A stretch of 46,922 nt of DNA from Thermomicrobiales bacterium. GTDB lineage: Bacteria; Chloroflexota; Chloroflexia; Thermomicrobiales; UBA6265. Below are positions 6,326 to 39,949 of this stretch, one piece after another. The stretch covers positions 1-46,922 of the forward strand of contig JBBJOE010000002.1 of NCBI GenBank assembly GCA_037721765.1, written 5' to 3'. The position numbers and the translations under genes are program-made. The notes under the pieces are model-generated. The model was given only the letters and a program-made list of their open reading frames with translations, was not told the DNA's origin and searched no databases. The first letter of the stretch is position 1. Each line of letters opens with the position of its first letter.

Positions 6326-6407
6326 CGACGCGCGTGGACCATGTGGTTCGTCACCGCGTCACCGCCACGTCGCGCGGGGCCGGGCCGACCGGCCGCTGGA
6401 GGTTCTC

Positions 6408-6683: not shown

Positions 6684-6714
6684 TCCGATCGATCGGTTTG
6701 GGCTCGCCCGCCCC

Positions 6715-7239: not shown

Positions 7240-7334
7240 TGCCGCACAACCCTTCCCGTCACTCGCGTCGCGTCGCCAGATCGTGCCCCGCCTGCGGTAA
7301 ACGCCCCTGAGGCCGACCCCACTCGGACCCAGCG

Positions 7335-8651: not shown

Positions 8652-8760
8652 GATGGCCGCGACAGGTAGGTCGTCGCGCGTTTGTCCTGGCAACGGAAGG
8701 TTCGTGACAACGCTTTCGGCCCCGTTTCATGTCCCGACGCTCCGATGGAGGACCAACGCC

Positions 8761-9978
8761 ATGAGGAACCAGTTCGGCGATGCGGACGATGCCGGGGCCA
8801 AGCTCTGCCTCGGCCTGATCTCTGGCACCTCCGCCGACGGCATCGACGCCGCCCTGGTCGAGATAACGGGCGGCGGCGTGGACGCCGAGCTCCGTCTGGT
8901 CGCTGCCCATTCACTCCCCTACCCCGACGCGGTCCGGTCCGAACTCCTCGCGCTCTATGATCAGCCGGGGGATGCCATCGCCCGCCTGTGTTCCCTGAAT
9001 GTCGTGGTCGGAAACCTGTTCGCGGACGCCGCGCTGGCCCTCTGCGCCGGAGCGAACGTCGATCCGGCCTCTCTGCACGTCGTCGGCTCCCACGGCCAGA
9101 CCGTCTGGCACCAGCCCACCCACGACCCGCGGTGGCCGTTGTCGCGCCCATCGACGCTCCAGATCGGCGAGGCGGCGGTGATCGCCGAACGCCTGGGCGT
9201 GCCGGTGGTCTCCGATTTCCGCGTCGCCGACATGGCCGCCGGCGGACAGGGCGCCCCGCTGGCTCCCTATTTTGACTGGGTCGTCCTGCGTCACCCGGAA
9301 CGCCACCGGGCGATCCAGAACATCGGCGGCATCGGTAACGTCACGGACCTCCCCGCCGGTGCGGCCATCGACGAGGTCCGCGCGTTCGACACCGGCCCCG
9401 GCAACATCCTGATCGACGGCATGGTCACACTCCTCACCGACGGCCAGATGACCTACGACCGCGACGGGGCTCTCGCCGCCGGGGGAAAGGTGGACGAGGC
9501 GATCCTCGCCTCCCTACTTACAGATCCTTACCTGGCCATCTCGCCACCCAAGACGACCGGGCGAGAGGTCTACGGCATCCCGCTGTGCCGGGATATCCTC
9601 CGCGATGCCGGCCTGGCGGACCTCCGACTCGAAGACGACGCGTCACGGTCAAGGGATATCGCCGCTACGGTCACGGCCCTCACCGCCCGGTCGATCGCCG
9701 GGGCATATGAGCGATGGTTGCCCGGCCTCGACGAGGTCATCGTCGGCGGCGGCGGCGCCCGCAACCCGACCCTCCTCCGCATGCTGGCGGAAGCCGTCTC
9801 CCCCGTCCCGCTCACGACCCTCGACGAACACGGGATCGACAGCGAGGCCAAAGAGGCGATGTTCTTCGCTCTCATGGCCCACGATGCCCTCGCTGGTCGG
9901 CCGACCAACGTCCCGACCGCCACCGGCGCTCGGAAGGCCGTCCCGCTCGGTACGATCACCCTCGCTCACCCGCGTTGA
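8761..9978 (+). CDS. anmK: anhydro-N-acetylmuramic acid kinase
   Basis: Track ORF 8605..9978 trimmed to the ATG at 8761 (GGAGGA at 8746-8751; the longer form overlaps the MFS gene). LGLISGTSADGIDAALVE signature near the N-terminus, followed by QNIGGIGNV and FDTGPGN. Confidence 0.9.
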   Translation: MRNQFGDADDAGAKLCLGLISGTSADGIDAALVEITGGGVDAELRLVAAHSLPYPDAVRSELLALYDQPGDAIARLCSLNVVVGNLFADAALALCAGANVDPASLHVVGSHGQTVWHQPTHDPRWPLSRPSTLQIGEAAVIAERLGVPVVSDFRVADMAAGGQGAPLAPYFDWVVLRHPERHRAIQNIGGIGNVTDLPAGAAIDEVRAFDTGPGNILIDGMVTLLTDGQMTYDRDGALAAGGKVDEAILASLLTDPYLAISPPKTTGREVYGIPLCRDILRDAGLADLRLEDDASRSRDIAATVTALTARSIAGAYERWLPGLDEVIVGGGGARNPTLLRMLAEAVSPVPLTTLDEHGIDSEAKEAMFFALMAHDALAGRPTNVPTATGARKAVPLGTITLAHPR

Positions 9979-10074
9979 TCGCTCGACGCTGGTACGCTTA
10001 GATCTGCCGAGACGGCATGCGGTCGTGCCTTCTACGATTTGGACGCGAGGCGCTCGCGTGAGGAGAACGTCACC

Positions 10075-11646
10075 ATGACTCACCGGATCATCACCCGTCG
10101 CGACGCCATGAAGGTCGCGGCCGCCGGGGCTGCCCTGGGTGCCGTGGGGATCGTGCCAGCGGGACATGCCGGAGCCCAGGGGGGGACACCCGCCGCGTCA
10201 CCCGCTGGCGAGCTGACGATCGGCAAGGCGCAGGAGGCGGTCGGGTTCGATCCGGCCCTCATCACGGCGGCGTCGAGTTTCCAGGCGATCGCACCGGTCT
10301 ACGAGGGATTGGTGCGCTTCGATGCCCAGAACCAACCTCTGCCGGCCCTGGCCGAGAAGTGGGAGACCCCGGATGATACGACCTTCGTGTTCACCCTCCG
10401 CCAGAGTGTCACCTTCCACAACGGCCGGGCGCTGACGGCCTCGGACGTCAAGTACAGCCTGGAGCGGATCGCCAATCCGGACACCGCCTCCCCCTGGGCC
10501 AGCCAACTCGAACCGGTCGCCTCGATCGAGGCTCCTGATGACCGCACGGTCCGGATGACGCTCAGCCAACCCTATGGACCCCTCCTGGCAACGCTCGCCT
10601 CCGCGTGGGCGGTCATCGTTCCGCGGGAGGAAGTCGAGAAGACGGGCGACCTGCAGACGACCATGGTTGGGACCGGCGCGTTCCGGCTGAGCGAGTACGT
10701 CGCGGACACCCGGACCGTGATGACCGCGAACGAAGCCTATTGGGACCAGGGGCTGCCCATGCTCGGGCAAGTGACCTGGAGCATCCTGCCCGACGAGTCC
10801 GCCCGGCTGGCCGCGATCCGCACGGGCGAGATCGGCCTGACCACCCTGGCCGATGCCGCCTCGGTCGACCTGGCCGGGCAGAGCGACGGCGTCGTCGTGA
10901 TCAACCAGGAGACGACCGACTACTACCTGCTCGGTCTCAATACGCTCCAGGCCCCGTTCGACGATGTCGCCGTCCGGCAGGCGATCAGCCTGGCCGTCGA
11001 CCGGCAAGCGATCGTCGATACCGCGTTCTTCGGCAACGGCTCGGTGACCGGGCCGATCGTGCCGACGTTGGGCGAGTGGGCCTCGCCGGTCGATCAGCTC
11101 CCACTCTACGGTCGAGACCTCGACCGGGCTCGCCAACTTCTGGCCGAAGCGGGGTTCCCGGACGGCTTCTCGATGAGCATCGTCGCGTCGCCCCTCTATC
11201 CGGAGTTCATCAACATCGCCCTGATCGTGCAGCAGCAACTCCAGGAAGTCGGGATCGATGTCCAGCTCGACCAGGTCGAGTGGGGAACGTTCATCGAGCG
11301 GTGGCGAGCGCGCGATTTCCAATCGTTCGTCAGTTTCAACGGCAGCGGCAACGACCCCGACCGGGCCCTCTATCCGGTCTTTCACACCGGGGGTTCGGTC
11401 AACGCCTTCCAGTTCAGCGATCCCGAGGTGGACGCGTTGCTGGAGCAGGGCCGGACCACGCTCGACCCCGCCCAGCGACAGGAGATCTACCGCCAGGCCG
11501 AACAGCTGATCGCCGATGCGGCCCCCGGGATCTTCATCTCGACCCGCCTCGCTTACTTCGCCCATCGCGACGATGTCACCGGCTTCGAGCCAAACCCGAT
11601 CGATACCTGGGAAACGCTCAAGCGGACGGCGGTCACCGGTTCCTAG
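10075..11646 (+). CDS. ABC transporter substrate-binding protein, family 5 (peptide/nickel, DppA/OppA-like) with a Tat-like signal
   Basis: Track ORF trimmed to the ATG at 10075 (MTHRIITRRDAMKVAAAGAALGAVG). Family 5 blocks: LVRFD, W.TPDD.TF.F.LR..V.FH.G. Confidence 0.9.
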   Translation: MTHRIITRRDAMKVAAAGAALGAVGIVPAGHAGAQGGTPAASPAGELTIGKAQEAVGFDPALITAASSFQAIAPVYEGLVRFDAQNQPLPALAEKWETPDDTTFVFTLRQSVTFHNGRALTASDVKYSLERIANPDTASPWASQLEPVASIEAPDDRTVRMTLSQPYGPLLATLASAWAVIVPREEVEKTGDLQTTMVGTGAFRLSEYVADTRTVMTANEAYWDQGLPMLGQVTWSILPDESARLAAIRTGEIGLTTLADAASVDLAGQSDGVVVINQETTDYYLLGLNTLQAPFDDVAVRQAISLAVDRQAIVDTAFFGNGSVTGPIVPTLGEWASPVDQLPLYGRDLDRARQLLAEAGFPDGFSMSIVASPLYPEFINIALIVQQQLQEVGIDVQLDQVEWGTFIERWRARDFQSFVSFNGSGNDPDRALYPVFHTGGSVNAFQFSDPEVDALLEQGRTTLDPAQRQEIYRQAEQLIADAAPGIFISTRLAYFAHRDDVTGFEPNPIDTWETLKRTAVTGS

Positions 11647-20356: not shown

Positions 20357-20931
20357 CCGGTCACTCTCCCAGTCGTGGTGCGATCCCGGCCCCGGGCGGC
20401 TTCGCCGGCCATGTGACCGATCTCGGGCACCACCAGCCGATCCATGGCCAGGGCGACGCCTGCCGGCGAGCCGGGCATCGCCAGGATCACCGTCCCCCCG
20501 GCCAGGCCACCGACCGCGCGGGACAGCATCGCCGCCGAACCGACCTCGGCGTAGCTGAGCATCCGGAACAGTTCCCCGAACCCATCGATCCGCTTGTCCA
20601 ATAATCCGACCAGCGCTTCATAGGTGGTGTCCCGGCCAGCGATGCCGGTTCCCCCGGTCGTCAGAACAACCTGGACCCGATCGTCCTCGACCCAGGCCGA
20701 CACCTGGGCCCGGATCGCGTCTGGCTCGTCCGGCAGGATACGCTGGTCGATCACCTCATGCCCCGCCGCATCGAGGCGATCGTGGATCGCCCGCCCGCCG
20801 TCGTCGGTCTCGACGGTCCTGGTATCGCTGATGGTCAGAACGGCGCATCTGACGACCGCCGGGGCGTGGGCCCGGTGCTGCCGGACGGCCGGCGAACCCG
20901 CCTCGGCCGTGTCCGGGGCGTTCACATCCAT
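20353..20931 (-). CDS. moaB: molybdenum cofactor biosynthesis protein B (MoaB/MogA family)
   Basis: AVLTISDTR...TTGGTGIAGRDTT...GSPAG blocks. 4-nt overlap with the hisS start. Confidence 0.85.
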   Translation of the reverse strand: MDVNAPDTAEAGSPAVRQHRAHAPAVVRCAVLTISDTRTVETDDGGRAIHDRLDAAGHEVIDQRILPDEPDAIRAQVSAWVEDDRVQVVLTTGGTGIAGRDTTYEALVGLLDKRIDGFGELFRMLSYAEVGSAAMLSRAVGGLAGGTVILAMPGSPAGVALAMDRLVVPEIGHMAGEAARGRDRTTTGRVTG

Positions 20932-22172
20932 GGCTCACCGGCCGGTGCCGTCAGGGCCAGTGCCAGGACGGCGTTGCCGAGGACGGCCTCTTCGACCTGG
21001 GCCACCGAGATCTGGTCGTGGATCGTGTGGGCGTGGCGTTCCTCGCCCGGGCCAAAACCGATCGTCCTCACGCCGAGGTCGTGCAGGTGTCCCCCATCGG
21101 TGGCGAAGGTCCAGGTGCCGACCCGCACCGTCCGGCCGAAGGCGCTCTCCAGCGCGTCCCGGGCGATGGTCACCGCCGGGTCGTCGGCGGCGGTCTCGAA
21201 CGGCAGGGTCGAGGGCATAGCGTCGGTCATGCCGGTGTAGGTCGAAACCGGCCGGGCGGCGACCGTCACGTCGACGACGATCCCGTCCAGCCCGGTGATC
21301 GCCTCCTCCGCGACCCGCCGGACGGCGGCGATCACCGTCGCCTCGTCTTCGCCGGGGACGTTGCGCCAGTCCAGCGAGATCGAGACGGAGCCCGGGGTGA
21401 CGTTGCCGCTGACTTGGTCCGTCTCGATCGAGGTCGGGGCCATCGACGAGCCGCCGAAGGTGTCGCTCGGCGTCATCGGCATGGTCTCGATGGCGAGCAA
21501 GAATCTGGCGACGGCAAAGTGGGGATTCCGTCCCCGCTCGGGGGCACTGGCGTGGGTCGACAGGCCGGTGAAGGTGACGCGCACGAACAGGCGGCCCCGG
21601 TGACCGCGCCGGAGCTCGTTTTGACTCGGCTCCCCGACCACGGCGACGTCGGTCGCCAGGGTCGTCGCCAGGTGGCGACTGCCGAAGCCCCCGACCTCTT
21701 CCAACACCACGGCCACCACGAAGATATCTCCCCGTGGCGTCAATCCCGCCTCGCGCAGGGCGGGGACCAAGGCGATCTGGGCGGCCATCGACCCCTTCAG
21801 GTCCGAAGCGCCACGCCCGTAGAGGATCCCGTCCTCGATGACCCCGCCGAACGGCGGTCGGGCCCATAGGGCGTGGTCACCGGGCGAGACGTGGTCGAGA
21901 TGGGTATTGAACTGCACGCGGGCGCCGCTTCCGGCACCACGCAGGTGCCCGATGACGTTCCCGGCGTCGTCTCGCCAGACGTCGTCGTAACCGAGACCGC
22001 GCATCGCCTCGATGACGAGATCGGCGGCCCTCCTCTCGTCGCCGGAGGGGCTCGGGGTCTGGATCAGACGCCGGGCTAGAGCGGTCGTGGCGGGAAACGC
22101 GCCCCGCACGGCCGCTCTGAGTTGTTTGAGCGTGCCGGTCGTCGCGGGGGCACTCGTTCGCGTGGTCATCAT
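20922..22172 (-). CDS. M20 family metallopeptidase (ArgE/DapE/YgeY-like)
   Basis: Track ORF trimmed to Met50 (MMTTRTS...), because the longer form overlaps the upstream gene. Blocks: HLDHVSPGD, GRGASDLKG, LEEVGG, FATDGG. Confidence 0.85.
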   Translation of the reverse strand: MMTTRTSAPATTGTLKQLRAAVRGAFPATTALARRLIQTPSPSGDERRAADLVIEAMRGLGYDDVWRDDAGNVIGHLRGAGSGARVQFNTHLDHVSPGDHALWARPPFGGVIEDGILYGRGASDLKGSMAAQIALVPALREAGLTPRGDIFVVAVVLEEVGGFGSRHLATTLATDVAVVGEPSQNELRRGHRGRLFVRVTFTGLSTHASAPERGRNPHFAVARFLLAIETMPMTPSDTFGGSSMAPTSIETDQVSGNVTPGSVSISLDWRNVPGEDEATVIAAVRRVAEEAITGLDGIVVDVTVAARPVSTYTGMTDAMPSTLPFETAADDPAVTIARDALESAFGRTVRVGTWTFATDGGHLHDLGVRTIGFGPGEERHAHTIHDQISVAQVEEAVLGNAVLALALTAPAGEPWM

Positions 22173-22299
22173 CGTCGCATCCCCATGTCCAGACGTCACG
22201 CCTGGCAGCGAGCGAAGGATCCGAGAAAACGGGACAACGTGGCCCCGGCTCTGCCGGGGCCACGTTGGACCTGTTCGTCCGCGTGTCAGTCTACGCCAG

Positions 22300-22884
22300 T
22301 TAGGAGACCGGCGTGGCATCCGTGGAGACGCCGCCCGATAGGCCCTGGGCCAGGAAGACGGTCACGATCGTCTCCTCGCCCGTGCCCTGGAGCCAGGCCA
22401 CGCCGGAGAACCCGGAGCCGTTCTGCTCGGCCAGGCCGATGAACAGATTGCCGTCGGAGTCCGGCGTGCCGCCGATGGCCCCGCAGGCGATGTAGTTGCC
22501 AGCGTTCTCGGCACTCTCATGGACGTTGATCGCGTGCTCGGCCGACAAGATCACGTCCAGCGACGCGGCGACGGTGGTCACGCTGACCGCGGCCGGCATC
22601 GCTTCCATGGAGCCGGTGCCCATCGCCATCGGCGAAGCGGCCGGTGAGGCCATGTCCATGTCCATGCCGCTGCGCATCTCGACATCGGCCAGCGGGAGCA
22701 ACGGCGTCGGGTTCAGCGTCTCGCAGTTGCCCTCGTGAATATGGGCCGGGTGCGGCACGGAACTCACGTCACCCGCGACCGGCGTGCTGTCCTGTGCCTG
22801 ACCGACCAGGGCTCCACCCGCGAGGACTAAGGCCAAAGCCATGGCCACGCCCACTACACCGAACTTGCTCATCATCCGCGACAT
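22300..22884 (-). CDS. secreted protein with an HIHEGNC motif and a Met-rich segment (candidate copper-binding; CHRD- or Cu-SOD-like motifs)
   Basis: Track ORF trimmed to Met31, with AGGAGGA upstream of the ATG at 22884. Signal peptide MSRMMSKFGVVGVAMALALVLAGGALVGQAQ. PHPAHIHEGNC and INVHES...YIACGAIGG. Eight Met in residues 70-96 (MRSGMDMDMASPAASPMAMGTGSMEAM). Confidence 0.65.
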   Translation of the reverse strand: MSRMMSKFGVVGVAMALALVLAGGALVGQAQDSTPVAGDVSSVPHPAHIHEGNCETLNPTPLLPLADVEMRSGMDMDMASPAASPMAMGTGSMEAMPAAVSVTTVAASLDVILSAEHAINVHESAENAGNYIACGAIGGTPDSDGNLFIGLAEQNGSGFSGVAWLQGTGEETIVTVFLAQGLSGGVSTDATPVS

Positions 22885-25060: not shown

Positions 25061-26974
25061 TCACACGGGGGCAGCGACCGGGATCGCCTTGAGGACCTCC
25101 GCCGCGACCTCGTACCGGCCAAACGAGGGCATCAGGTAGACCCCCTGGACATGTGGCACGGCCGCCGCCAGGAGGTCCTGAGCCATCGTCACACCCGCCT
25201 GGCGGCCGTCCGAACCGGCCCCGCGCATGCGGGCCCGGGCCTCGTCGGTGAGGGTGATGCCCGGCACCTCATTGTGCAGGAACTCGGCGTGCTTGGTGGA
25301 TTGCAGCGGCAAGATGCCCAACATCACCGGCAGGCCCAGATCCGCCGTGCCCCACTCGGCCGCGTAAATTTCCAAGAACCGGTGCCAGACGGAGAGATCG
25401 AAGATGGGCTGGGTCATCACGAAGTGGGCCCCCGCATCCAGCTTCGCCCGCAACCGCCGGGCCTCGTCGGCCAGATCGGCCTTGGTCGGGTCGACCGCGC
25501 AGGCGATGGTGAAGCTGGCCCCCCGCCCGATCGAGGCCCCGGCCGAATCGACCCCCTCGTTGAGGCGCCGCAGGACCCGGATCAGGCCGACGGAGTCGAC
25601 GTCGTAGACGGCGGACGAGTCCGGGTAGTCGCCGAGGCTGGGCGGGTCCCCGGTCAAGGCGAGGATGTTTCGCACCCCGACGGCGTGAGCGCCGAGCAAT
25701 TCGGACTGGAGTCCCATCAACGAGCGGTCCCGGGTCGTGAAGTGGACGATGGTCTCGATCCCGACCCGGTGCTGGATCACGTAGCTGAGGGTCATCGCGC
25801 TCATCCGGACCCGCGCCATCGGGGAATCGGCGACGTTGATCGCGTGGACGCCGGCGTCCTTGAGCAACTGGGCCCCGGCCAGGGCCTTGGCCGGGTTGAA
25901 GCCTTTCGGAGGGTCGATCTCGACGCTGACCAGGAAGGTCTTCCCGAGGGCTTTCGCCACGTCGGTGGGCTCATCGGTCGGTTCGGTCCCCATCGCCAGA
26001 GGGTTTGCCGGGGCATCCGACTCCTCTCCGCGTGGGACGGTGACGCCCAAGCCATGCCGCTCCGGTCGGGCGACCCCGGCGTCGAAGGCACCGCGCAGGG
26101 CGGCGACGTGGGCAGGGGTGGTACCGCAGCACCCACCGACGATCGATGCCCCGGCCTCGATCGCTTCCTGGCCGAAGCCGGCGAAGTAATCCGGCGAGGC
26201 CTGGTAGATGACGCGGCCACCGACGTGGGTCGGCCAGCCCGCGTTCGGCATCACCACCAACGCCGGGGGATCGGGCAGATTCGCGACATCGAGAGCGGCC
26301 GAGAGGCGACGCAGCACCGCCAGGGTCCGGCTTGGCCCGACCGAACAGTTGGCCCCGATGGCGGCCGGACCCAGCGGCAGCAGTGCGGCTACCACGTGCT
26401 CCGGGGTCTCGCCGCCGATGGTCCGGCCATCCTCGGCGAAGGTCAGTAGGACCACGATCGGCAGCCCGCCGACCGCTTGGGCGGCCAATATTGCCTGACG
26501 GGACTCCGCGACCGACCCCATGGTCTCCAGGACCAACAAGTCCACGCCGCCTTCGAGCAGGGCGGAAATCTGCTCTTCGAATATCTCCCGCACCGTCTCC
26601 GGCGCGGTCATCCCGATCGGGGCGATGGTCCGGCCGGTCGGGCCGACGGCGCCCGCCACCAGGACTGGCGCACCGCTGATCTCCCGCTCCTCCCGGGCAA
26701 GTTTGGCCGCCCGGCGATTGATGTCACGGACCTGGCCACCCAGGCCGAACACCTCCAGCTTGGCCCGGTTCGCCCCGAAGGTGTTGGTCTCGATGATGTC
26801 GGCGCCGGCTCGGATGTAGGCCCGATGGATCGACGCGACCTGTTCGGGGTGAGTCAGGGTCAGGGCGTCGAAGCACTCGTCGAGGGCCGCGCCACCGGCG
26901 TAGAGCATCGTGCCCATCGCGCCGTCGAGCAGCAGCGGTCCCTGGCGAAGACGATCGAGGAAGGGGTGCGACAT
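25061..26974 (-). CDS. bifunctional homocysteine S-methyltransferase / 5,10-methylenetetrahydrofolate reductase (B. subtilis YitJ-like)
   Basis: N-terminal Hcy-binding domain (LLLDGAMGTMLY...ETNTFGAN...GGCCGTTPAHV). C-terminal MetF/MTHFR domain (FLVSVEIDPPKG...TTRDR...NILALTGDPP). Confidence 0.9.
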   Translation of the reverse strand: MSHPFLDRLRQGPLLLDGAMGTMLYAGGAALDECFDALTLTHPEQVASIHRAYIRAGADIIETNTFGANRAKLEVFGLGGQVRDINRRAAKLAREEREISGAPVLVAGAVGPTGRTIAPIGMTAPETVREIFEEQISALLEGGVDLLVLETMGSVAESRQAILAAQAVGGLPIVVLLTFAEDGRTIGGETPEHVVAALLPLGPAAIGANCSVGPSRTLAVLRRLSAALDVANLPDPPALVVMPNAGWPTHVGGRVIYQASPDYFAGFGQEAIEAGASIVGGCCGTTPAHVAALRGAFDAGVARPERHGLGVTVPRGEESDAPANPLAMGTEPTDEPTDVAKALGKTFLVSVEIDPPKGFNPAKALAGAQLLKDAGVHAINVADSPMARVRMSAMTLSYVIQHRVGIETIVHFTTRDRSLMGLQSELLGAHAVGVRNILALTGDPPSLGDYPDSSAVYDVDSVGLIRVLRRLNEGVDSAGASIGRGASFTIACAVDPTKADLADEARRLRAKLDAGAHFVMTQPIFDLSVWHRFLEIYAAEWGTADLGLPVMLGILPLQSTKHAEFLHNEVPGITLTDEARARMRGAGSDGRQAGVTMAQDLLAAAVPHVQGVYLMPSFGRYEVAAEVLKAIPVAAPV

Positions 26975-27071
26975 GGGGGTGGGCTCCAGGCGTCAGAGCA
27001 TCGTTCGTCCCCGGCAGCAGGTCCGGGGTCAGGGGACGGGAAGGGAACGGTGGCGACGGGCGATCGTGCGA

Positions 27072-27100
27072 TTGACGCGCCGTGATGACAACGCTACAGT
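27072..27100 (+). promoter_or_regulatory. putative promoter of the cphB-cphA1 operon
   Basis: TTGACG (27072-27077), exact 17-nt spacer, TACAGT (27095-27100). Predicts a 5' UTR of about 110 nt before the GTG at 27219. Confidence 0.5.
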
Positions 27101-27218
27101 CCCGGTGCACCACACCGACGTGATGATCGGGACCGTCCCGGCGTGCCAGCCCGGGACAGGTCTTCGTCGCATACGACCCAGCAACCCCTCACGGACCGTG
27201 GGGGACGGAGTGGCGAGA

Positions 27219-28067
27219 GTGAGCACGTCCCATGCGGACGCCCCGGCGATGGTGGTCGGCGATTCGAAACCAGCAGCGGTTCGCGTCGGTCCCATTATGG
27301 CAATCGGGGGAGCCGAAGACAAACTCGATGACAAGGTGATCCTGTCCACGTTCCTGCAGATCAGCGGGGGCAGCCAGGCCAGGATCGCGATCGTGCCGAC
27401 CGCCTCTTCGATCGAGGCGGCGGGGGAGCGGTACAAGGCCCTCTTCCTCGGGATGGGTGCCGACTCGGCCGAGGTCACCTTCTTCGGCAACCGGGCCGAT
27501 GCCCAGCGATCGAGCCTGCTGGCCGCGCTCGACCGGGCGACCGGCATCTTCCTCACCGGCGGCAACCAACTCCGCCTGTCGTCCATCCTGGGCGGCACCC
27601 CGGCGGCCGAGATCATCCGGCGGCGCAACGCCGAGGGTGCGACGGTGGGAGGCACGAGTGCCGGGGCCTCGATCCTCTCGTCGCACATGGTCGCCTATGG
27701 CGCCAGCGGCAACGCCCCCAAGCAGCGGATGGCCCAGATGGTCGCGGGGTTCGGCCTCGTCCCCGACGTGATCATCGACCAGCACTTCCGCCAGCGCGAC
27801 CGGATCGGTCGCCTCCTGACCCTCGTCGCGTCCAACCCCCGCCTGCTCGGCGTCGGCGTGGACGAGGACACGGCCGTCCTGATCGAGGGACTGGACGTGA
27901 TGGAGGTGATCGGCCGGCACAGCGTCACGGTGGTCGATGGGCGGAGCATGGAGTCGAATATCCACCAGGTGAAGCGCTACGGCGAGATCTCGGTGACCGG
28001 CGCCACGCTGCACATGCTGACCGCGGGCCGTCGCTTCGACCTCTCGACCCGAACCGTGGTCGATTAG
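27219..28067 (+). CDS. cphB: cyanophycinase (peptidase S51), intracellular CphB type (no signal peptide seen)
   Basis: Track ORF 26910..28067 overlaps the divergent gene. Trimmed to the in-frame GTG at 27219 (GGAG 9 nt upstream); ATG 27249 is an alternative. Blocks: IMAIGGAEDK, IAIVPTASS, IFLTGGNQ, GGTSAGASI (catalytic Ser), DQHF.QRDR.GRL. Confidence 0.9.
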   Translation: MSTSHADAPAMVVGDSKPAAVRVGPIMAIGGAEDKLDDKVILSTFLQISGGSQARIAIVPTASSIEAAGERYKALFLGMGADSAEVTFFGNRADAQRSSLLAALDRATGIFLTGGNQLRLSSILGGTPAAEIIRRRNAEGATVGGTSAGASILSSHMVAYGASGNAPKQRMAQMVAGFGLVPDVIIDQHFRQRDRIGRLLTLVASNPRLLGVGVDEDTAVLIEGLDVMEVIGRHSVTVVDGRSMESNIHQVKRYGEISVTGATLHMLTAGRRFDLSTRTVVD

Positions 28068-28166: not shown

Positions 28167-30821
28167 ATGTTGACCATCCGGAGCACCAATATCTTGCGCG
28201 GCCCGAACATCTGGGCCCGGACCCCGGTCATTCACCACCTTGTGGACCTCGGTGAACTTGAGGATCGCCCGAGCAACAAGATCCCCGGGTTCTACGAGCA
28301 ATTGACGGAAATGATGCCGTCGCTCTACGACCACGCCTGCTCCGTCGGCCGGCCGGGCGGCTTCCTGCAACGGTTGCGGGAGGGCACCTGGATGGGTCAC
28401 GTCATGGAACACGTCGCCCTCGAACTCCAGAACTTGTCCGGCGCCGAGGTCCGGCGCGGCCTGACGCGGGGTTCGAGCGAGCGGGGCGTCTACAACGTCG
28501 TCTTCCAGTTCGACCAGGAGGACGTCGGCCTGGCGGCGGGACACCTCGCGGTCCGCATCCTCGACCACGCCATCTACGGCGCCGAACCCGACTTCGACTA
28601 CACCCACGAACTCGAAGAGCGGGTCATCAAGGTCGCCCAGCGCCTAGCCTACGGACCATCGACCGGAGCCATCGTCAGCGAGGCCGAGCGGCGCGGCATC
28701 CCCGTCCTCCGGCTCGATCCCAAGCGGTCGCTCGTCCAACTCGGACACGGCAGATACCAGGAGCGGATCTGGGCCACGGTCACCTCCCGGACGGCCAACA
28801 TCTCGGTCGACATCGCCAGCAACAAGGAGCTGACGAATCGCCTGCTGCACGAGGTCGGCATCCCCGTCCCCCGTGCCATGGTGACCGGGACCGAGGACGG
28901 CGCCGTGCGGGCCGCCGAGCGGATCGGCTACCCCGTCGTTCTCAAACCGCTCGACGGAAACCACGGCCGGGGCGTCTGCGTCAACTTAGCCGGCGAGGCC
29001 CAGGTCCGGGAGTTCTTTCCGGTCGCGATGGCCGAGAGCCGGGACGGCACCATCGTGGTCGAGACCTTCATCACCGGCAAGGACTTCCGCATCCTGGTCG
29101 TCCACAATCACGTCGTCGCCGTCGCCGAGCGCGTCCCCGCCCACGTCGTCGGCGACGGCACGCGCTCGATCGCCGAACTCGTCGACCTCGCCACCGCCGA
29201 CCCCCGACGCGGCGTGGGCCACGAGAAGATCCTGACCCGCATCTCGATCGACGCCCAGACGATGGAGGTCCTAGAGCGCCAGGGTCTCACCGTCGGCCAC
29301 ATCCCGGTGGCCGACGAGGTCATCACGCTCAAGTTGACCGGCAACATGAGCACCGGCGGCACCTCGATCGACCGCACCGACGACATCCACCCCGACAATG
29401 TCGAGATCGCCCGCCAGGCGGCAATGGTGGTCGGCCTCGACATCGCCGGCATCGACTTCATCACCAGCGACATCTCGCAGTCGGTCCGCAACACCGGCGG
29501 CGCGATCTGCGAGGTCAACGCCGGTCCCGGCTTCCGGATGCACACCAACCCGACCGAGGGACACCCCCGCCACGTCGGCCGGGCCGTGGTCGATATGCTC
29601 TTCCCCTCGGGCGCCCCCTCCCGGGTCCCGATCGTCGCCGTCACCGGGACCAATGGCAAGACCACCACGTCCAGGATGATCGCCCACATCCTGAAATTGT
29701 CCGGGCGCCGCGTCGGCCTGACGACGACGGACGGCATCTACATCGACGGCACCCAGATCATGGCCGGGGACACCAGCGGCCCGACCAGCGCCCAGATGGT
29801 GCTGAAGAACCCCTCCGTCGATTTCGCGGTGCTGGAGACCGCCCGGGGCGGCATCTTGCGCTCCGGCCTCGGGTACGACCGCTGCGACATCGCCGTCGTC
29901 ACAAACGTCGCCGGCGACCATCTCGGCCTGCGAGGCGTGGACACCCTGGCGGACCTGGCCCGGGTCAAGGCGGTCGTTCCCCAGTCGGTGCTGCGGGACG
30001 GTGCCAGCGTGCTGAACGCCGACAACGAGTGGACGGTGGAGATGGCCCGACGGGCCCGGGGCGAGATCGTCTTCTTCAGCCTCGACGACGACAACCCCGT
30101 CATCCGCGAGCACCTGCGCGAGCGGGGCCGGGCCGTCGTCCTGAAGCAGACTCGCCAGGGCGAGATGCTGACGATGATGGAACACCGGCGCGAGACCAGC
30201 CTGCTGCTCGCCCACCAGATCCCGGCGACATTCGAGGGCCGACTGAGAGTCAACATCGCGAACGCCATGGCCGCCGCCGCCGCCGCCTTCGCGGCCGATG
30301 TCCAATTGGAACATATCCGCAATGCGCTCCGGAGCTTCACGACCAACTTCTACCAGACCCCGGGTCGATTCAACATGCTGGAGTCAAACGGCCGCAAGGT
30401 GCTGATCGACTACTGCCACAATGTCGCCGGTCTGGAATCGCTGGCCGACTTCGTTCGCCGGACAGACCCGGCTCGCACGGTGGCGGTGATCGCCATGCCG
30501 GGCGACCGCAGCGACGGCGACGCCGATGCCTTCGGCCGCCTGGCCGCCAAGACGTTCTCGGAGATCGTGATCCGGGAGGATTCCAACCCGCGGGGACGGG
30601 CCCGGGGCGAGATGGCCGGGCTCCTGCGGGAGGCGGTCGTCGAGGGCGGCATGGCCGCGGACGCCATCACGATCGTCACCGACGAGATCGAGGCGTGTCG
30701 CGTGGCCATCGAGCGCGCGGGTCGTGACGACTTGGTGATCCTCATGGTCGACCGGCCGCAATTGGTCTGGTCCACCCTGACCGACCCGGACTCGGTCACC
30801 GCGGCCAGAGCCGTGAATTGA
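28167..30821 (+). CDS. cphA: cyanophycin synthetase (full-length N + ATP-grasp G + Mur-ligase M domains)
   Basis: 884 aa. N-domain (LRGPNIW...MEHVALELQ). ATP-grasp (IGYPVVLKPLDGNHGRGV...ITGKDFRILVV). Mur-ligase P-loop (VAVTGTNGKTTTSRM) and C-terminal domain. AGGGGA RBS. Confidence 0.95.
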   Translation: MLTIRSTNILRGPNIWARTPVIHHLVDLGELEDRPSNKIPGFYEQLTEMMPSLYDHACSVGRPGGFLQRLREGTWMGHVMEHVALELQNLSGAEVRRGLTRGSSERGVYNVVFQFDQEDVGLAAGHLAVRILDHAIYGAEPDFDYTHELEERVIKVAQRLAYGPSTGAIVSEAERRGIPVLRLDPKRSLVQLGHGRYQERIWATVTSRTANISVDIASNKELTNRLLHEVGIPVPRAMVTGTEDGAVRAAERIGYPVVLKPLDGNHGRGVCVNLAGEAQVREFFPVAMAESRDGTIVVETFITGKDFRILVVHNHVVAVAERVPAHVVGDGTRSIAELVDLATADPRRGVGHEKILTRISIDAQTMEVLERQGLTVGHIPVADEVITLKLTGNMSTGGTSIDRTDDIHPDNVEIARQAAMVVGLDIAGIDFITSDISQSVRNTGGAICEVNAGPGFRMHTNPTEGHPRHVGRAVVDMLFPSGAPSRVPIVAVTGTNGKTTTSRMIAHILKLSGRRVGLTTTDGIYIDGTQIMAGDTSGPTSAQMVLKNPSVDFAVLETARGGILRSGLGYDRCDIAVVTNVAGDHLGLRGVDTLADLARVKAVVPQSVLRDGASVLNADNEWTVEMARRARGEIVFFSLDDDNPVIREHLRERGRAVVLKQTRQGEMLTMMEHRRETSLLLAHQIPATFEGRLRVNIANAMAAAAAAFAADVQLEHIRNALRSFTTNFYQTPGRFNMLESNGRKVLIDYCHNVAGLESLADFVRRTDPARTVAVIAMPGDRSDGDADAFGRLAAKTFSEIVIREDSNPRGRARGEMAGLLREAVVEGGMAADAITIVTDEIEACRVAIERAGRDDLVILMVDRPQLVWSTLTDPDSVTAARAVN

Positions 30822-30934: not shown

Positions 30935-32608
30935 TCAGATCGGCGTACCGATCAGGGAGAGCCGAGCCCGTAGGTCGTCGCCGCCCTCGATGCACATCAT
31001 CGCGATGACGTCGCCCGGCCGGGCGGATTTCAAGAATATGTCCAGCGCCTCCGATTCCGTATCGACCGGAGTCGCCATCTCTTGACCACCCTCCTCGATG
31101 CCCTGCCGGAAGTGGCGCTCCATCTCGCCCGGCTCGCGGCCCCGCAGGTAGCGGTGCGTCCGCTTGACGAGAACCCGGTCGGCGCCGGTCGCCGCGATCC
31201 GGCCCAGGCCGACCAGTGTCTCGTCGGGGCGGTCCCCGGCCGTGCTGATCAGGGAGAGGAGGCGACCCTCCGGCCCGGCGAACGTGCGGGCGAAGGACAA
31301 CAGGTACCGGAGCCCCACCTCGTTGTGCGCGTAGTCGGAGATGACGGTCACGCCCGCGACGTCATAGGCGTTGAGGCGGCCGGGATTGGTGTCGGCCGCG
31401 TTCCGGAACGCTCTCAACCCCGCGGCGACCTGCTCCATCGTGAGGCCCAGCGCGAGGCAGGCGGCAGCACCGGCGAGGGCATTCTCGATCATGTGGGCGG
31501 CCCGGCCGCCGAAGGTCATCGGGACATCGGCCAACCCGATCAGGTCGTTCTCCCGGTTACCCCTGACGTGAACGAGCCGCCCGTCACGAACCACCACCGC
31601 CTCGCCGCCCGCCAGGACGTGGGCGGTGACGAACGCGTTCTCGGGAATCCGTGAGAACAGGCAAACCGAGGCGCGGACCGCCGATGCCAGTGTCTGCACC
31701 AGCGGGTCGTCGGCGTTGAGGACCACCGTGCCGCTCGAGCGGGTCGTCCTCGGCACGACCGCCTTCACTCGAAGCAAGCCCTCGATCGTCATCACGCCGT
31801 GCTGGCCAAGGTGATCCGCGGAGACATTGGTGACCACGGCCACGTCGTTGCTCTCGTAGGCCACGCCGCGCTGCAGTATGCCGCCCCGGGCGGTCTCCAG
31901 TACCGCCACCTCGACATCCGGGTGGTCCAGCACCCTGCGGGCCCCCCGGATGCCGGTCCAGTCTCCGGCGACGAGTTCGTCGCCGTTGACGTGGACACCC
32001 GTCGTCGAGGTCCACCCGACTCCCGTCCCGGTCGCGGCCAGGACCGAGGCGATCAACCGGGTAGTGGTCGTCTTACCGTTCGTGCCGGTGATCGCGACGA
32101 TCCGCTTTCGACGGTTCTGGTCGTGAACGACGAGCGGCGCGTCATGTGGTTCGGGTGCCGACGCCATGATCGCCGCCAACCGCGAGACGACCTGATCATG
32201 GTCGACGGGCTCGCCGGAGACCAGCGCCGCGATCGACTCGGCCACCGCCACGCCGGCACGGCGATGTCGCCAGCCGAAGGCCATGGTGACGTGGCCAGAT
32301 TCTTCCATGCGTTCCCACCTGGCATTGGGCGCCGGGACACCCGTGCGCTGGTGGAGCAGGTCGATGACCTGGATCAACGCGTCAAACGTCGCCGCGATCG
32401 GGTCGGGGTCGTCCCGGTCACGGTCGTCCTCGGGCTCGGCATCGTCCCCATCGAGCCCGGAGACTCCCCAGTGCTCGAGTCTCTGGAGCAGGCCCCGCGC
32501 GGCATCCCACGTGGCATCGACGGCTGTCACCTCGACTTCGACCTTGATGGCCGGTTCGAGGAGGAATACGTTTGGCCCGTCAAGCTCGCGGATCTCGACC
32601 AATCTCAC
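30935..32608 (-). CDS. cyanophycin synthetase-like protein lacking the ATP-grasp domain (N-domain fused directly to a Mur-ligase M domain; CphA2-like or novel)
   Basis: GTG start at 32608 with a GAGGGGG RBS. MRLVEIRELDGPNVF N-domain. From about residue 170, RIVAITGTNGKTTTTRLIASVL. Shares blocks with the CphA1 M domain: AVLETARGGIL, VVTNV.ADHLG, RVKAVVP, VLNADD, NPGR.N, DY.HN. Confidence 0.8.
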   Translation of the reverse strand: MRLVEIRELDGPNVFLLEPAIKVEVEVTAVDATWDAARGLLQRLEHWGVSGLDGDDAEPEDDRDRDDPDPIAATFDALIQVIDLLHQRTGVPAPNARWERMEESGHVTMAFGWRHRRAGVAVAESIAALVSGEPVDHDQVVSRLAAIMASAPEPHDAPLVVHDQNRRKRIVAITGTNGKTTTTRLIASVLAATGTGVGWTSTTGVHVNGDELVAGDWTGIRGARRVLDHPDVEVAVLETARGGILQRGVAYESNDVAVVTNVSADHLGQHGVMTIEGLLRVKAVVPRTTRSSGTVVLNADDPLVQTLASAVRASVCLFSRIPENAFVTAHVLAGGEAVVVRDGRLVHVRGNRENDLIGLADVPMTFGGRAAHMIENALAGAAACLALGLTMEQVAAGLRAFRNAADTNPGRLNAYDVAGVTVISDYAHNEVGLRYLLSFARTFAGPEGRLLSLISTAGDRPDETLVGLGRIAATGADRVLVKRTHRYLRGREPGEMERHFRQGIEEGGQEMATPVDTESEALDIFLKSARPGDVIAMMCIEGGDDLRARLSLIGTPI

Positions 32609-32751
32609 CGCGGTGCCCCCTCACGGCTCACTGGCTCCCAGGCCCGCGAACGCGGCCTGGAGAACGCACCGGGGCATGGTCGCACACCCATGGGGCAAGG
32701 ACGCACGAGGTGGACCATCGCAGGTCGCAACGACGGTTCGGGCGGCCATCG

Positions 32752-33762
32752 TCAGCCAAGGGAGGAGAGCAAGACCGCCACCGTGTTGTAGAGGGCGTGG
32801 GTGATGATCGCCGCCGTGGTGCCGTAGCGCTTGCGCTCGATGCCGAGGAGCACGCCGACACCGAACAGGCCGACGATGGTCCACGAGAATCCGTATTGGG
32901 TGTGGAGCAATGCGAAGAGGGCGGAGGTCAAGAGGATGCCGAAGCGGGGCTGCAACGCGCCGCGGAGCAAGAGTTCCTCGCCCACCCCGGCACTGATCCC
33001 GATCGCCAGCGCCCCGACCGGATTTTGAAAAGTGCCGAGCGACTCGCTCATCACTTCGTCGATGTCCTCGGTCAGGCCAGGCTGGAACACTTGCGTCAAG
33101 ATGCCACCGAAGGCCGAGGCGACGAACCCGAGCACCAAGAAGCCGACCGCGATGCCCAGGGTCTTGATCGTCGGTCTCCGCAACCCGAGTCGGGCGGACG
33201 CATCCGAGAAGCCGCGCTCGACCCAGAGGCCGACCGCCGCGTAGGAAACGCCGACCAGCAGGACGGCCTGGGCGATCAACTGGACATAGGTGATCTCACT
33301 GGCTTGGGCCCCGGTGACGTCCTCACCGATATTGATCAGGGTGATGACGAAGAAGAGGACCGTCGCCAGCATCACGGCCAACCCGACCATGTGGACTGGC
33401 GAACCGGGATCAATGGGCACGACCCGTGCGGCAAGCGCGCGGAACCGGCTGACGAGCGGCAGCACCAGCGCGAGGCCGATCGTCGTCAGCGTCAGGCCAT
33501 CGATATTCCCCGAGACGAGGAACGCCGCCCCCGCCACCAACAGCAAGATGCCCGGCAGGCCGAGTAATAGATAGAGACCCACCCGGGCCGAGCGGTCGTG
33601 CCGGGCGTGGTAGACCCAGAAGGAGAGTCCGAACGCGACCGCGATCAGACCGATGACGATCCCGACGACGATGATATCGGCCAACCGTGTTATCCCATCC
33701 CGCGAGTGACCAGGCGGAACACCCGGGTCATGGCGTCGATCGCCGAGGGCGACCCAATGCAC
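32752..33762 (-). CDS. CPBP family intramembrane glutamic endopeptidase (CAAX protease/Abi)
   Basis: Multiple TM helices. Motifs GEELLLRG, FALLH and THALYN near the C-terminus. Confidence 0.85.
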   Translation of the reverse strand: MHWVALGDRRHDPGVPPGHSRDGITRLADIIVVGIVIGLIAVAFGLSFWVYHARHDRSARVGLYLLLGLPGILLLVAGAAFLVSGNIDGLTLTTIGLALVLPLVSRFRALAARVVPIDPGSPVHMVGLAVMLATVLFFVITLINIGEDVTGAQASEITYVQLIAQAVLLVGVSYAAVGLWVERGFSDASARLGLRRPTIKTLGIAVGFLVLGFVASAFGGILTQVFQPGLTEDIDEVMSESLGTFQNPVGALAIGISAGVGEELLLRGALQPRFGILLTSALFALLHTQYGFSWTIVGLFGVGVLLGIERKRYGTTAAIITHALYNTVAVLLSSLG

Positions 33763-37660: not shown

Positions 37661-38789
37661 ATGCAGCCCCTGACGTCCGTCTCACTCCCCGATCTGTTGG
37701 ACCGGCTCGAGCGCATCCGGGTGCGTCTTTGACCTCGCTCACCTCGAGCGAGAGATCGAAGACATCGAACGCCAGAGCGGCGAACCCGGCTTCTGGGACG
37801 ACTCGAACGCCGCCCAGCGGGCGATGCGAGCCCTCGGCGACCTGAAAGCCACCGTGGGTGATGTCCAGGGACTCGGCGACACGCTGGTCGAACTCCAGAC
37901 CTTGCAAGAACTCGCCAAGGGCGAGCCCGAGTTCGCCGGCGAGGTCGAGTCGGAGGCCCGGGCCGCCGGTGAACGCCTCGGCCGGCTCGAGCTGAGCCTC
38001 GCCCTCAACGGTCCCCATGACCGGTCAGACGCGATCCTCGTCATCCATTCCGGTGAGGGCGGCATCGATGCCCAGGACTTCGCGGCGATGCTGTCCCGCA
38101 TGTACTTGCGTTGGGCCGACCGGCGAAATCTCAAGGCCGAACTGCTGGACGAGACCACCGGCGAGGAGGCGGGGATCAAGAACGCCACGATCGAGCTGAA
38201 GGGCCCCAACGCCTACGGTCTCGTCCGGGGCGAGGCCGGGTCGCATCGCCTCGTCCGCCAGTCCCCGTTCGATTCTGCCCACCGGAGGCACACGGCGTTC
38301 GCCCTGGTCGAGGTGTTGCCCGAACTGGAGGGTCAGTCCGAGATCACGATCAACCCTGATGATGTCCGGATGGATGTCTTCCGGGCCTCGGGCGCCGGTG
38401 GCCAACACGTCAACAAGACCAGCTCGGCGGTCCGCCTGACGCACGTCCCGACCGGTATCGTGGTGACGTGCCAGAACGAGCGCAGCCAGATCCAGAATCG
38501 GGAGACGGCCCACAAGATCCTCGGGGCCAGGTTGCTGGAGCGGCAGATGAAGGCCGAGGCCGAGGAGCGTACCCGTCTCAAGGGCGACATCCAGGCCGCC
38601 GGCTTCGGGAACCGCATCCGCTCCTATGTCCTCCACCCCTACACGCAGGTCACCGACCACCGGACCGAGACGAGCGTCGGGGACGCCAATGGTGTCCTCG
38701 ACGGCGCCCTGGACCCCTTCATCGATGCCTACCTGGAGGGGCAGATGGGGGTGGAGCAGGACCCCACGGCCGCTGGACCGGCGGCATGA
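37661..38789 (+). CDS. prfB: peptide chain release factor 2, expressed through a programmed +1 ribosomal frameshift: join(37661..37729, 37731..38789)
   Basis: ORF0 MQPLTSVSLPDLLDRLERIRVRL ends at the in-frame TGA 37730-37732, in the context CTT TGA C. The +1 frame continues DLAHLEREIEDIERQSGEPGFWDD... into track ORF 37824..38789, which carries the SPF (RQSPFD) and GGQ (SGAGGQHVNK) motifs. Confidence 0.93.
37719..37733 (+). promoter_or_regulatory. RF2 autoregulatory +1 frameshift site
   Basis: GGGUG CGU CUU UGA C. The slippery CUU, the UGA stop and the following C are identical to the classical E. coli-type site. A partial Shine-Dalgarno-like GGGUG lies 3 nt upstream of CUU. Confidence 0.85.
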
Positions 38790-39949
38790 CCGGCCGCCCG
38801 AGGGCACTCGGCGCCACGGTGACGTTCGTCCTCACCTGGGTACTCCTGATTTCGACCGTGGCACCGAATCCGGGCCCAACCGCTCTCGCGAGCGACACGG
38901 GCACGCCGGGAGCGAATCGGGGCCGCGAGATCGTCGCCACGGCTGCCGAAACGGCGACCCTGGCGACTGGAGTCACGTTCACCCTCGACGGGACAAGTCC
39001 GGTCCCGATCCGGTCGGCATCGGTGCGGTATCACCCGCGATGGCAAGAGACGGTCTATTCCCTCTCCACCCCCCTCCCGCCGGAGATGCCGGACGGGAGG
39101 TTCTCGCTTTCTCTGTCGATCGATCCCCGTCAGGACGGTCTGCCTCCCGGCCTGACCCTCGCGTCTGCCTGGCACCTCGTGTTCATCGACGGCACGACTT
39201 GGACGAGCCCGGCCCGAGATGTCGAATGGGTTGACGACCGGTTCGACTGGTCGATCCGGCGCGCCGGGAACGTCGAGGTGATGGTCGGGGCGGATGATGC
39301 CTCGGACCGGGGCGACCGGATCGTGGCCGAGGTCGCGCGCGCTCTGCCAGACATCGAGCGGCTGATCGCGACCACCGTTCCTGACCCCATCCGGTTCTGG
39401 GTCTATGATTCGAGCGCCGACCTGGCTGGAACGCGGACCGCGAATGTCGAACCGTGGATCGCGGCGAGTTCCTTTCCGGAGCTTGGCGTGACACTGGCCG
39501 CGATCCCTCCCGGAGACACCATCGAGATAGGCCGCCTGGTCCCCCACGAACTGGCCCACCACGTCCTCTACCACGCCGCCGTGAGCCCGTTCTCAGCGCC
39601 GCCCCTCTGGTTCGACGAAGGTCTTGCCGGGTGGTTCCAATCCTCGGGCACCGAAGGATTTTCGGCTCTGGTCACGGCCGCCGCGGCGGGAGGGACACTC
39701 CCGAGCGTGGCCGCCCTGGCGTCGTCGTTCCCCTTCGAGTCGAGCGAGGCGAGCCTCGCTTATGCCGCCTGTTGGAGCGTGATGACCTTCGTCATCGAGA
39801 CTCGCGGAGAAGCGGCAATCCCCCGTCTCGCGTCAGCCTTCGCCGCTGACCTGACCGACGACGCGGCCAGCCTCGCCGCGCTCGGTGTCGATCAACGGGC
39901 GCTTGACCGTGAGTGGCGTGCCTGGTTGGGTCCGGATCGACCAGGGTGA
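38786..39949 (+). CDS. secreted or membrane-anchored peptidase MA-like (HExxH) domain protein
   Basis: Track ORF 38468..39949 trimmed to the ATG at 38786 (ATGA overlap with the prfB stop). N-terminal hydrophobic segment ATVTFVLTWVLLISTVA. C-terminal VPHELAHHVLYH...WFDEGLAGW resembles Peptidase_MA_2-type domains. Confidence 0.7.
   Translation: MTGRPRALGATVTFVLTWVLLISTVAPNPGPTALASDTGTPGANRGREIVATAAETATLATGVTFTLDGTSPVPIRSASVRYHPRWQETVYSLSTPLPPEMPDGRFSLSLSIDPRQDGLPPGLTLASAWHLVFIDGTTWTSPARDVEWVDDRFDWSIRRAGNVEVMVGADDASDRGDRIVAEVARALPDIERLIATTVPDPIRFWVYDSSADLAGTRTANVEPWIAASSFPELGVTLAAIPPGDTIEIGRLVPHELAHHVLYHAAVSPFSAPPLWFDEGLAGWFQSSGTEGFSALVTAAAAGGTLPSVAALASSFPFESSEASLAYAACWSVMTFVIETRGEAAIPRLASAFAADLTDDAASLAALGVDQRALDREWRAWLGPDRPG

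Follow-up and report, generated by a model that had tools for sequence, protein, structure and literature searches.

A cyanophycin synthetase paralogue without an ATP-grasp domain in Thermomicrobiales: a candidate stand-alone side-chain ligase

The cph locus and the domain architecture of the paralogue

The window analysed here is a 46,922-nucleotide (nt) stretch of DNA from a Thermomicrobiales bacterium (GTDB UBA6265; assembly GCA_037721765.1, contig JBBJOE010000002.1, positions 1-46,922) that carries cphB and cphA1, genes for the degradation and synthesis of the nitrogen-storage polymer cyanophycin, and, convergent with them, a paralogue of cphA1 whose product lacks the ATP-grasp (G) domain. 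The paralogue gene lies at 30935..32608 on the reverse strand (stop codon included), as do all of its features given below, and it was delimited from the list of open reading frames (ORFs) and from full-length homologues, translation serving to verify its domain coordinates. It encodes 557 amino acids (aa) from a GTG start, and a Shine-Dalgarno-like GAGGGGG can be read 7 nt 5' of this codon at 32616..32622. The 49-sequence family alignment begins at the same Met/Val and homologues align from residue 1 over their full length. The neighbouring cphA1 (28167..30821, forward strand) encodes an 884-aa protein with N, G and M domains that scored 1166.6 bits on TIGR02068 (cutoff 850) and matched Cyanophycin_syn, seven ATP-grasp families and the Mur domains in Pfam. 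Upstream of it, the cyanophycinase gene cphB (26910..28067, forward strand) scored 248.7 bits on TIGR02069 (cutoff 126.6) over ORF residues 129-375; its homologues in the loci of relatives are 280-303 aa long, and its translation probably begins at one of two ATG codons, at 27123 or 27249. A preliminary description of this DNA had placed the paralogue tail-to-tail with cphB-cphA1, in agreement with the 113 base pairs (bp) that we found between the two convergent stop codons.

The same description had taken the product for a CphA relative cut down to its N and M domains, and hhalign and Foldseek bore this out, as did Pfam for the M domain and the lack of ATP-grasp. The confirmed architecture consists of a CphA-type N domain (residues 1-150; 32159..32608), a linker of 16 residues (151-166; 32111..32158; boundaries from BLASTP and hhalign) that stands where CphA1 has its G domain of approximately 325 aa, and a Mur-ligase M domain that is complete. 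The only Pfam matches of the paralogue were Mur_ligase_M (residues 173-383) and Mur_ligase_C (410-538), with no ATP-grasp match even at E<=0.1. A search for a vestigial ATP-grasp element in the window's family found none, only 16 residues separating the N domain from the P-loop strand, and the AlphaFold2 secondary structure likewise has no additional fold between N and M.

Homology of the N domain to that of CphA1, also claimed previously, depended on the method of comparison. Pairwise BLASTP against the neighbouring CphA1 did not detect it (E 2.9), nor did the paralogue N domain reach E 0.1 on the Pfam Cyanophycin_syn model (PF18921). For profile-profile comparison by hhalign, a paralogue-family profile of residues 1-165 was set against one made from 84 N domains of CphA1, namely that of the window and 83 from fetched loci; paralogue residues 1-149 aligned with CphA1 residues 2-158 at a probability of 97.2% and E 4.5e-11. 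The AlphaFold2 model built on the family alignment has a predicted local distance difference test score (pLDDT) of 91.9 and a predicted template modelling score (pTM) of 0.89, and a Foldseek search of the Protein Data Bank (PDB) with this model returned the CphA1 structures 7LGJ, 7LG5 and 7WAE at the top, with query-normalised template modelling (TM) scores of 0.82-0.84 over approximately 890 alignment columns. In this superposition the modelled N and M domains both align with CphA1 in the same mutual arrangement, the G domain appearing as a gap. MurE reached a TM score of only about 0.55, over the two domains that it shares with the model. The resemblance of the two N domains is thus real by profile-profile and structure comparison, although it lies below pairwise detection.

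Within the family, the start of the N domain (MRLVEIRDLDGPN) is strongly conserved, with E5, R7, L9, G11, P12, N13, P19 and K22 invariant in the 49-member alignment, and the Cx19HxxEH metallopeptidase motif is lacking. An acidic insert of the N domain had been reported at about nt 32383-32460; translation confirms the insert (SGLDGDDAEPEDDRDRDDPDP, residues 50-70) and corrects its position to 32399..32461. The insert arose where one clade has expanded a variable acidic loop, which is shorter in most family members (consensus SDDExxxG), and its residues 53-64, with pLDDT below 50, are the sole disordered part of the AlphaFold2 model. A search of 1.84 billion representatives with the N-domain profile found 133 proteins, the full-length ones being 527-594 aa long with one further of 745 aa, indicating that the paralogue type of N domain is confined to the N+M architecture.

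Ancestry, catalytic residues and distinguishing motifs of the M domain

BLASTP aligned residues 167-539 of the paralogue with residues 486-861 of the neighbouring CphA1 at 40% identity (E 3e-67), and every conserved sequence block that had been quoted earlier as common to the two proteins was found. On TIGR02068 the paralogue scored 401.7 bits, below the equivalog cutoff of 850 and over model positions 474-848 only. Its scores on the models of peptidoglycan Mur ligases lay far below their cutoffs: MurE (TIGR01085) 122.4 bits against 257.3, MurF 68.7 against 288.6, MurC 72.1 against 335.1 and MurD 58.2 against 212. The MurT models of NCBIfam gave 34.8 and 27.6 bits (cutoff 800), and no gene of GatD type stood out in the context tables of the relatives' loci, in which no search aimed at GatD was made. 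A profile search of the PDB similarly gave 380 bits to CphA1 in comparison to 113 for MurE-MurF. These hidden Markov model (HMM) scores, on which the placement relative to MurE and MurT rests rather than on the tree described below, support assignment of the M domain to the CphA type and not to the MurE/MurT type.

The paralogue has the set of features typical of the Mur ligase superfamily, namely Mur_ligase_M and Mur_ligase_C, a P-loop GxxGK[TS], the Mg-binding glutamate (E238) and a DH motif. Its ATP-binding core, Mcore (residues 167-405; 31394..32110), scored 81.7 bits on Pfam PF08245, above the cutoff, and was aligned to TeCphA1 and SuCphA1. This core contains the P-loop TGTNGKTTT (residues 174-182; 32063..32089) and the pair D265-H266 (31811..31816), both invariant in the family. 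The subsequent Mlid (residues 406-557; 30938..31393) is complete, scored 48.8 bits on PF02875, again above the cutoff, and has invariant R411 and H428.

Residue roles have been assigned in the M domain of TeCphA1 to the P-loop residues K499/T500, the Mg ligands T522 and E558, the adenine-stacking N497 and the Mlid phosphate ligands R731 and H748 (PMC9427784), and mutation of D585/H586 to alanine inactivates the M domain of SuCphA1 (PMC9262961). By alignment, with an offset of +320, each has a counterpart in the paralogue: K179/T180 for the P-loop pair, T202 and E238 for the Mg ligands, N177 for the stacking asparagine, R411 and H428 for the phosphate ligands, and D265/H266 for the SuCphA1 pair. 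All of these ATP, Mg and catalytic residues are invariant in the 49-sequence alignment except T202, which is Ser or Thr, and approximately 50 positions are invariant in both the paralogue family and the M domains of CphA1. Judged from its residues, the M domain therefore looks active, that is, complete and catalytically competent.

Group-wise conservation also identified motifs that set this family, and the sister family without a G domain described below, apart from CphA1. The GDWTGIRGA loop (residues 215-223; 31940..31966) has the signature GD[YWF][TS]GPxGA across both G-less families in comparison to GD[CNAMT][TS]GPxSA in CphA1, and the position of G222 is Gly in 100% of the window's family and 83% of the sister family, while Ser occupies it in 95% of CphA1 sequences. 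In Mlid, the CphA1 segment (E/Q)-D-x-x-x-R-G-R has become E-T-x-R-Y-L-R-G-R through a one-residue insertion, giving RYLRGR in the window (residues 486-491; 31136..31153; aligned to CphA1) with an invariant Tyr487 and without the Asp that CphA1 conserves to about 90%. The G-less proteins also vary at the third Asp of GDRxDxD, a position that CphA1 conserves to 96%. The R-G-R segment of Mlid would correspond in position to the DNPR motif with which MurE reads its incoming amino acid.

Distribution, gene linkage and a sister family

Searches of protein databases returned thousands of matches, and the best 120 were full-length proteins of Chloroflexota (Thermomicrobiales, Chloroflexia) that are 512-607 aa long, mostly about 545 aa, and 47-99% identical to the paralogue. 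Where relatives carry a name it is 'Mur ligase family protein', 'hypothetical protein', 'cyanophycin synthetase' or 'UDP-N-acetylmuramyl tripeptide synthase', which agrees with the earlier expectation of generic automated annotation. A scan of one genome per species extended the set of full-length relatives to other Chloroflexota and to Actinomycetota, with Kribbella, Terrabacter and Nocardioides among the latter.

Linkage to the cyanophycin genes was scored by tblastn, for which N, G, M and CphB each served as a query. In 10 of 11 informative loci cphB-cphA1 lies convergent and downstream of the paralogue at a distance of 0.1-8 kb, the exception being L001; locus L005, which ends at a contig edge, was left out of the count. 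Six further Thermomicrobiales-type contigs had cphA1-cphB adjacent in three cases, 9 kb away in one and not within 10 kb in two (L082, L083). Including the window, cphA1 was present within 10 kb, together with cphB where the locus extends far enough, in 15 of 18 informative loci, Kribbella, Terrabacter and other Actinomycetota among them, so that the linkage asked for by the preliminary description is conserved in other phyla. The Thermomicrobiales region is broadly syntenic (ParB, Rce1-like protease, PrfB, L19, RNase HII). These syntenic neighbours were not found in the loci of Actinomycetota or other Chloroflexota, where only cphA1 and cphB recur. It is this restriction of the shared neighbours to cphA1 and cphB across phyla that provides the strongest argument for a functional tie of the paralogue to cyanophycin. 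A search for other conserved neighbours that might hint at a substrate found none, as the Rce1-like/CPBP gene is constant only in Thermomicrobiales-type loci, and the Dyp peroxidase and PCuAC genes lying between paralogue and cphA1 in Kribbella look unrelated.

All 14 intact CphA1 proteins partnered with G-less genes carry a Cx19-21HxxEH motif. The CphA1 of the window is one of them, with Cx19HxxEH at residues 58-83 (C58...H79VMEH83; CSVGRPGGFLQRLREGTWMGHVMEH; nt 28338-28414), a motif that predicts primer-independent synthesis.

The loci examined also revealed a second family of G-less Mur-domain genes in six loci of Gammaproteobacteria, Myxococcota (Plesiocystis, Nannocystis) and Acidobacteriota (L046 9470-11143; L080 11413-13191; L071, L078 and L042, each downstream of cphA1; and L061). 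In five of the six the gene comes immediately after cphB-cphA1 and shares their strand, the sixth being a 3-kb contig; in L046, for example, cphB (5778-6653) and cphA1 (6675-9461) are followed after 9 bp by the sister paralogue (9470-11143). At its N terminus (M.L.DSRRLTGPN) the sister protein gave a 92% match to the profile of CphA1 N domains, and its AlphaFold model (pLDDT 89) has an N+M fold with Foldseek TM scores to CphA1 of 0.82-0.84. The sister family is abundant in metagenomes under generic names only. It agrees with the window's family in N+M architecture, the aromatic residue after GD, the Ser-to-Gly change, the invariant Tyr of YxRGR and the linkage to cphB-cphA1. It differs in its tandem rather than convergent position downstream of cphA1 and in retaining about 40 residues (roughly 118-152) that weakly resemble the first G-domain element (hhalign E 1e-4, probability 56%).

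When 111 M domains were compared in a neighbour-joining tree (midpoint-rooted, no MurE outgroup, 60 bootstrap replicates), all G-less sequences fell into one clade with no CphA1 inside it. Bootstrap values were 53% for this joint clade of the two families, 72% for the Chloroflexota and Actinomycetota group and 95% for the tandem (sister) group. The CphA1 proteins partnered with G-less genes formed two sister clades, which, in this simple midpoint-rooted tree, fits co-inheritance of a two-gene unit.

Variants of the gene and its surroundings were also observed. The orthologue of Terrabacter sp. BE26 (L008, 9911-12187) is 758 aa long, a TPR_5 repeat domain (residues 633-753) being fused C-terminally to N+M, and L010 is built likewise. 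In L082 (12213-19454) the genes that come after the N+M gene encode a Peptidase_M14 protein and, over five genes, an SBP_bac_5/Opp-type peptide ATP-binding cassette transporter, with cphA1/cphB not nearby; the CphZ cyanophycin dipeptidases belong to an M14-like group (PMC9974463).

Within the window, a gene for an Rce1-like/CPBP membrane protease (32752..33762, reverse strand; Pfam PF02517) lies 143 bp upstream of the paralogue on the same strand, and co-transcription of the two is possible. The same gene is found directly upstream and on the same strand in L081-L086 and L001, in L083 as a truncated form of 98 aa, and is missing from L002, from Actinomycetota and from the other loci, indicating a neighbour specific to the Thermomicrobiales lineage. 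Simple promoter and terminator scans around the paralogue gave nothing beyond shuffle expectation. The window further encodes an SBP_bac_5 peptide-binding protein (10039-11646, forward), an M20/M28 peptidase (20922-22319, reverse), a Peptidase_MA_2 protein (38468-39949, forward) and an ordinary bacterial large signal recognition particle RNA (4311-4573, reverse; Rfam RF01854, 190.6 bits); no tRNA genes were found in it.

Proposed function and relation to known enzymes

We consider, at about even confidence and by analogy with CphA1, that the paralogue may work on its own as an ATP-dependent isopeptide (side-chain) ligase whose substrate in trans is the cyanophycin produced by CphA1, or short fragments of it. 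The peptide would be held in the groove between N and Mcore, and ATP would phosphorylate a free carboxylate to an acyl phosphate; by analogy, this would be the beta-carboxylate of an Asp that lacks its arginine. The amino group of an amino acid would then be joined to it, arginine by default, with another amino acid possible given the altered Mlid motif. The physiological purpose could be the completion or repair of un-arginylated Asp, priming, or attachment of a different side chain. Retention of exactly N and M in the same mutual arrangement suggests that a complete peptide site has been preserved, and the invariance of the catalytic residues argues against a pseudoenzyme. Without a G domain, the protein would not be expected to extend the aspartate backbone. 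We infer a putative acceptor, donor amino acid and physiological role from what was observed directly, namely the N+M architecture, a catalytic set that is intact, descent from the CphA type and linkage to the cph genes.

Several points weigh against this proposal. The cell already has a complete CphA1 with an intact-looking M domain, which leaves no obvious need for a second side-chain ligase; the convergent orientation of the two genes in the window indicates that they are not co-transcribed. No cphA1 was found within 10 kb in three Thermomicrobiales-type loci (L001, L082, L083), and within Thermomicrobiales part of the cph linkage could be plain synteny, that is, inherited gene order. The motif changes described above, in turn, suggest that acceptor and/or donor specificity may have shifted from that of CphA1.

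This last point leads to a group of readings in which the product itself is altered. A polymer-modifying ligase of new specificity might place a non-arginine residue (e.g. Lys, Orn, citrulline or an acidic residue) on Asp side chains or extend the alpha-carboxylate of the side-chain Arg. Both G-less families share the Mlid changes, in which the conserved Asp is lost and the invariant Tyr gained, as well as the Ser-to-Gly and aromatic substitutions in the GDxTGPxSA loop, and heterologous hosts are known to produce cyanophycins with Lys or Glu (PMC8050183). We nevertheless think such an activity rather unlikely, as residue-level structure does not tie the CphA1 motifs to donor choice, about 50 other invariant positions are held in common with CphA1, and modified cyanophycin is unreported in Chloroflexota or Actinomycetota. 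A broader hypothesis, which we put forward tentatively and as somewhat more plausible, is that the G-less N+M proteins constitute a third functional class of CphA-like enzymes, the mirror of CphA2, with a specificity unlike that of the CphA1 M domain; together with CphA1 they might make or repair a chemically distinct cyanophycin (with a non-arginine or extended side chain) in Chloroflexota and Actinomycetota and, via the sister family, in Proteobacteria, Myxococcota and Acidobacteriota.

Other readings assign the enzyme to smaller substrates or to a different pathway. The minimal primer of CphA1 is (beta-Asp-Arg)-Asp (PMC9262961), and with free Asp as its substrate an M-type ligase would form the first isopeptide bond, so that the paralogue, tightly linked as it is to cphA1, might convert free Asp and Arg into beta-Asp-Arg or another very short seed for subsequent elongation by CphA1. 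We judge this improbable: the retained polymer-holding N domain argues for a polymeric acceptor, and the primer-independence motif Cx19-21HxxEH (for its role see PMC9262961) in all 14 intact partner CphA1 proteins leaves no obvious need for a primer synthase. The preliminary description had instead suggested that the paralogue re-polymerises the beta-Asp-Arg dipeptides released by CphB through its M domain, at one ATP per dipeptide, and the adjacency of cphB, the conceivable use of a dipeptide donor given a donor-side motif that differs from CphA1, and the L082 gene beside an M14 peptidase and an Opp-type importer instead of cphA1/cphB, which would fit imported small peptides, are compatible with it. 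The CphA2 analogy behind this model is inverted, however, for CphA2 works through its G domain, the sole catalytic domain, and its M domain is truncated and inactive (PMC10273328). In CphA1, too, backbone extension is the chemistry of the G domain while M only acylates side chains (PMC9262961), and extension of an alpha-backbone by a Mur-type domain is without precedent in this system; dipeptide recycling through M is accordingly not supported, and we regard it as slightly less probable again than primer synthesis. Least probable of all is a role outside cyanophycin metabolism, as a Mur-type ligase for another peptide or cell-envelope component, or as a non-catalytic partner or scaffold of CphA1. 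The three loci without a nearby cphA1 and the constant Rce1-like membrane protease of Thermomicrobiales speak for it, but cphA1 and cphB are the sole neighbours common to Chloroflexota, Actinomycetota and the phyla of the sister family, both domains are CphA-specific with invariant catalytic residues, and the scores on MurE, MurT and other Mur models lie far under their cutoffs.

The stand-alone side-chain ligase that we favour would extend a scheme in which cyanophycin synthesis currently involves two enzymes, CphA1 (N+G+M) and cyanobacterial CphA2 (N+G with a dead M). A conserved partner with the M-type activity only, beside cphA1/cphB in at least five phyla implies a step outside this scheme, which could be side-chain ligation in trans, repair, priming or attachment of a different side chain. 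No prior account of a G-less CphA paralogue was found in the searchable literature, and the preliminary description too had named no characterised member outside cyanobacteria, although subscription journals lay mostly outside the search and an earlier account is possible; a bioinformatic survey of cyanophycin genes makes no mention of Mur ligases or M domains. N+M is an uncharacterised third architecture of the CphA lineage, whose sequences are already public under generic names. The family is of interest mainly because its members are conserved and widespread, are linked to cphA1/cphB and can be tested directly, given cultured hosts (Kribbella, Terrabacter) and synthetic cyanophycin segments that are established reagents. 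As a small enzyme of single activity it would suit dissection of the M reaction and of polymer holding by the N domain, and it could come to serve in the production of tailored cyanophycins, for which there is industrial interest.

In comparison to known enzymes, the closest relative is CphA1 itself (SuCphA1 7LG5/7LGJ/7LGQ; TeCphA1 7WAC-7WAF), with which the paralogue shares a homologous N domain, a complete M domain (Mcore and Mlid) and the known ATP, Mg and catalytic residues. It differs from CphA1 in the replacement of the approximately 325-aa ATP-grasp G domain by a 16-residue linker, in an N domain without Cx19HxxEH, in the signatures GD[YWF]TGPxGA and RYLRGR and in a TIGR02068 score of less than half the cutoff. 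The Mur ligases (MurE, MurC/D/F, Mpl, pMur) have in common with it the Mur folds, the P-loop, the Mg-binding Glu, the DH motif and ATP-dependent acyl-phosphate chemistry; unlike theirs, the N terminus of the paralogue is a CphA N domain and not the UDP-binding domain 1, and its genes have no cell-wall context.

CphA2 provides the most instructive contrast. Both proteins derive from CphA1, each has lost one of the two ligase activities, and the N domain of CphA2 is likewise without the peptidase motif. The paralogue had been described as a more radical reduction along the line of CphA2, but it is instead its mirror image: in CphA2 the G domain is active and the M domain truncated and inactive (PMC10273328), whereas the paralogue is devoid of G and its M domain is full-length, Mlid included. 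CphA2 is called a cyanobacterial enzyme (PMC9262961), in contrast to the Chloroflexota and Actinomycetota that host the paralogue family, although CphA2-like architecture was also seen here outside cyanobacteria. As a separate observation, CphA2-like ORFs occur just upstream of a full cphA1 (starting about 3.5 kb upstream of the match) in L054, L052, L039, L032, L027, L053, L048, L013, L029, L057 and L056, and also in L045. Their hosts are Betaproteobacteria, plus one gammaproteobacterium (L056) and one member of the Polyangiaceae (L045). Except in L045, these ORFs consist of N, G and the first 175-245 or so M residues and have no Mlid; the L045 ORF matches about 320 M residues, Mlid being only partly missing.

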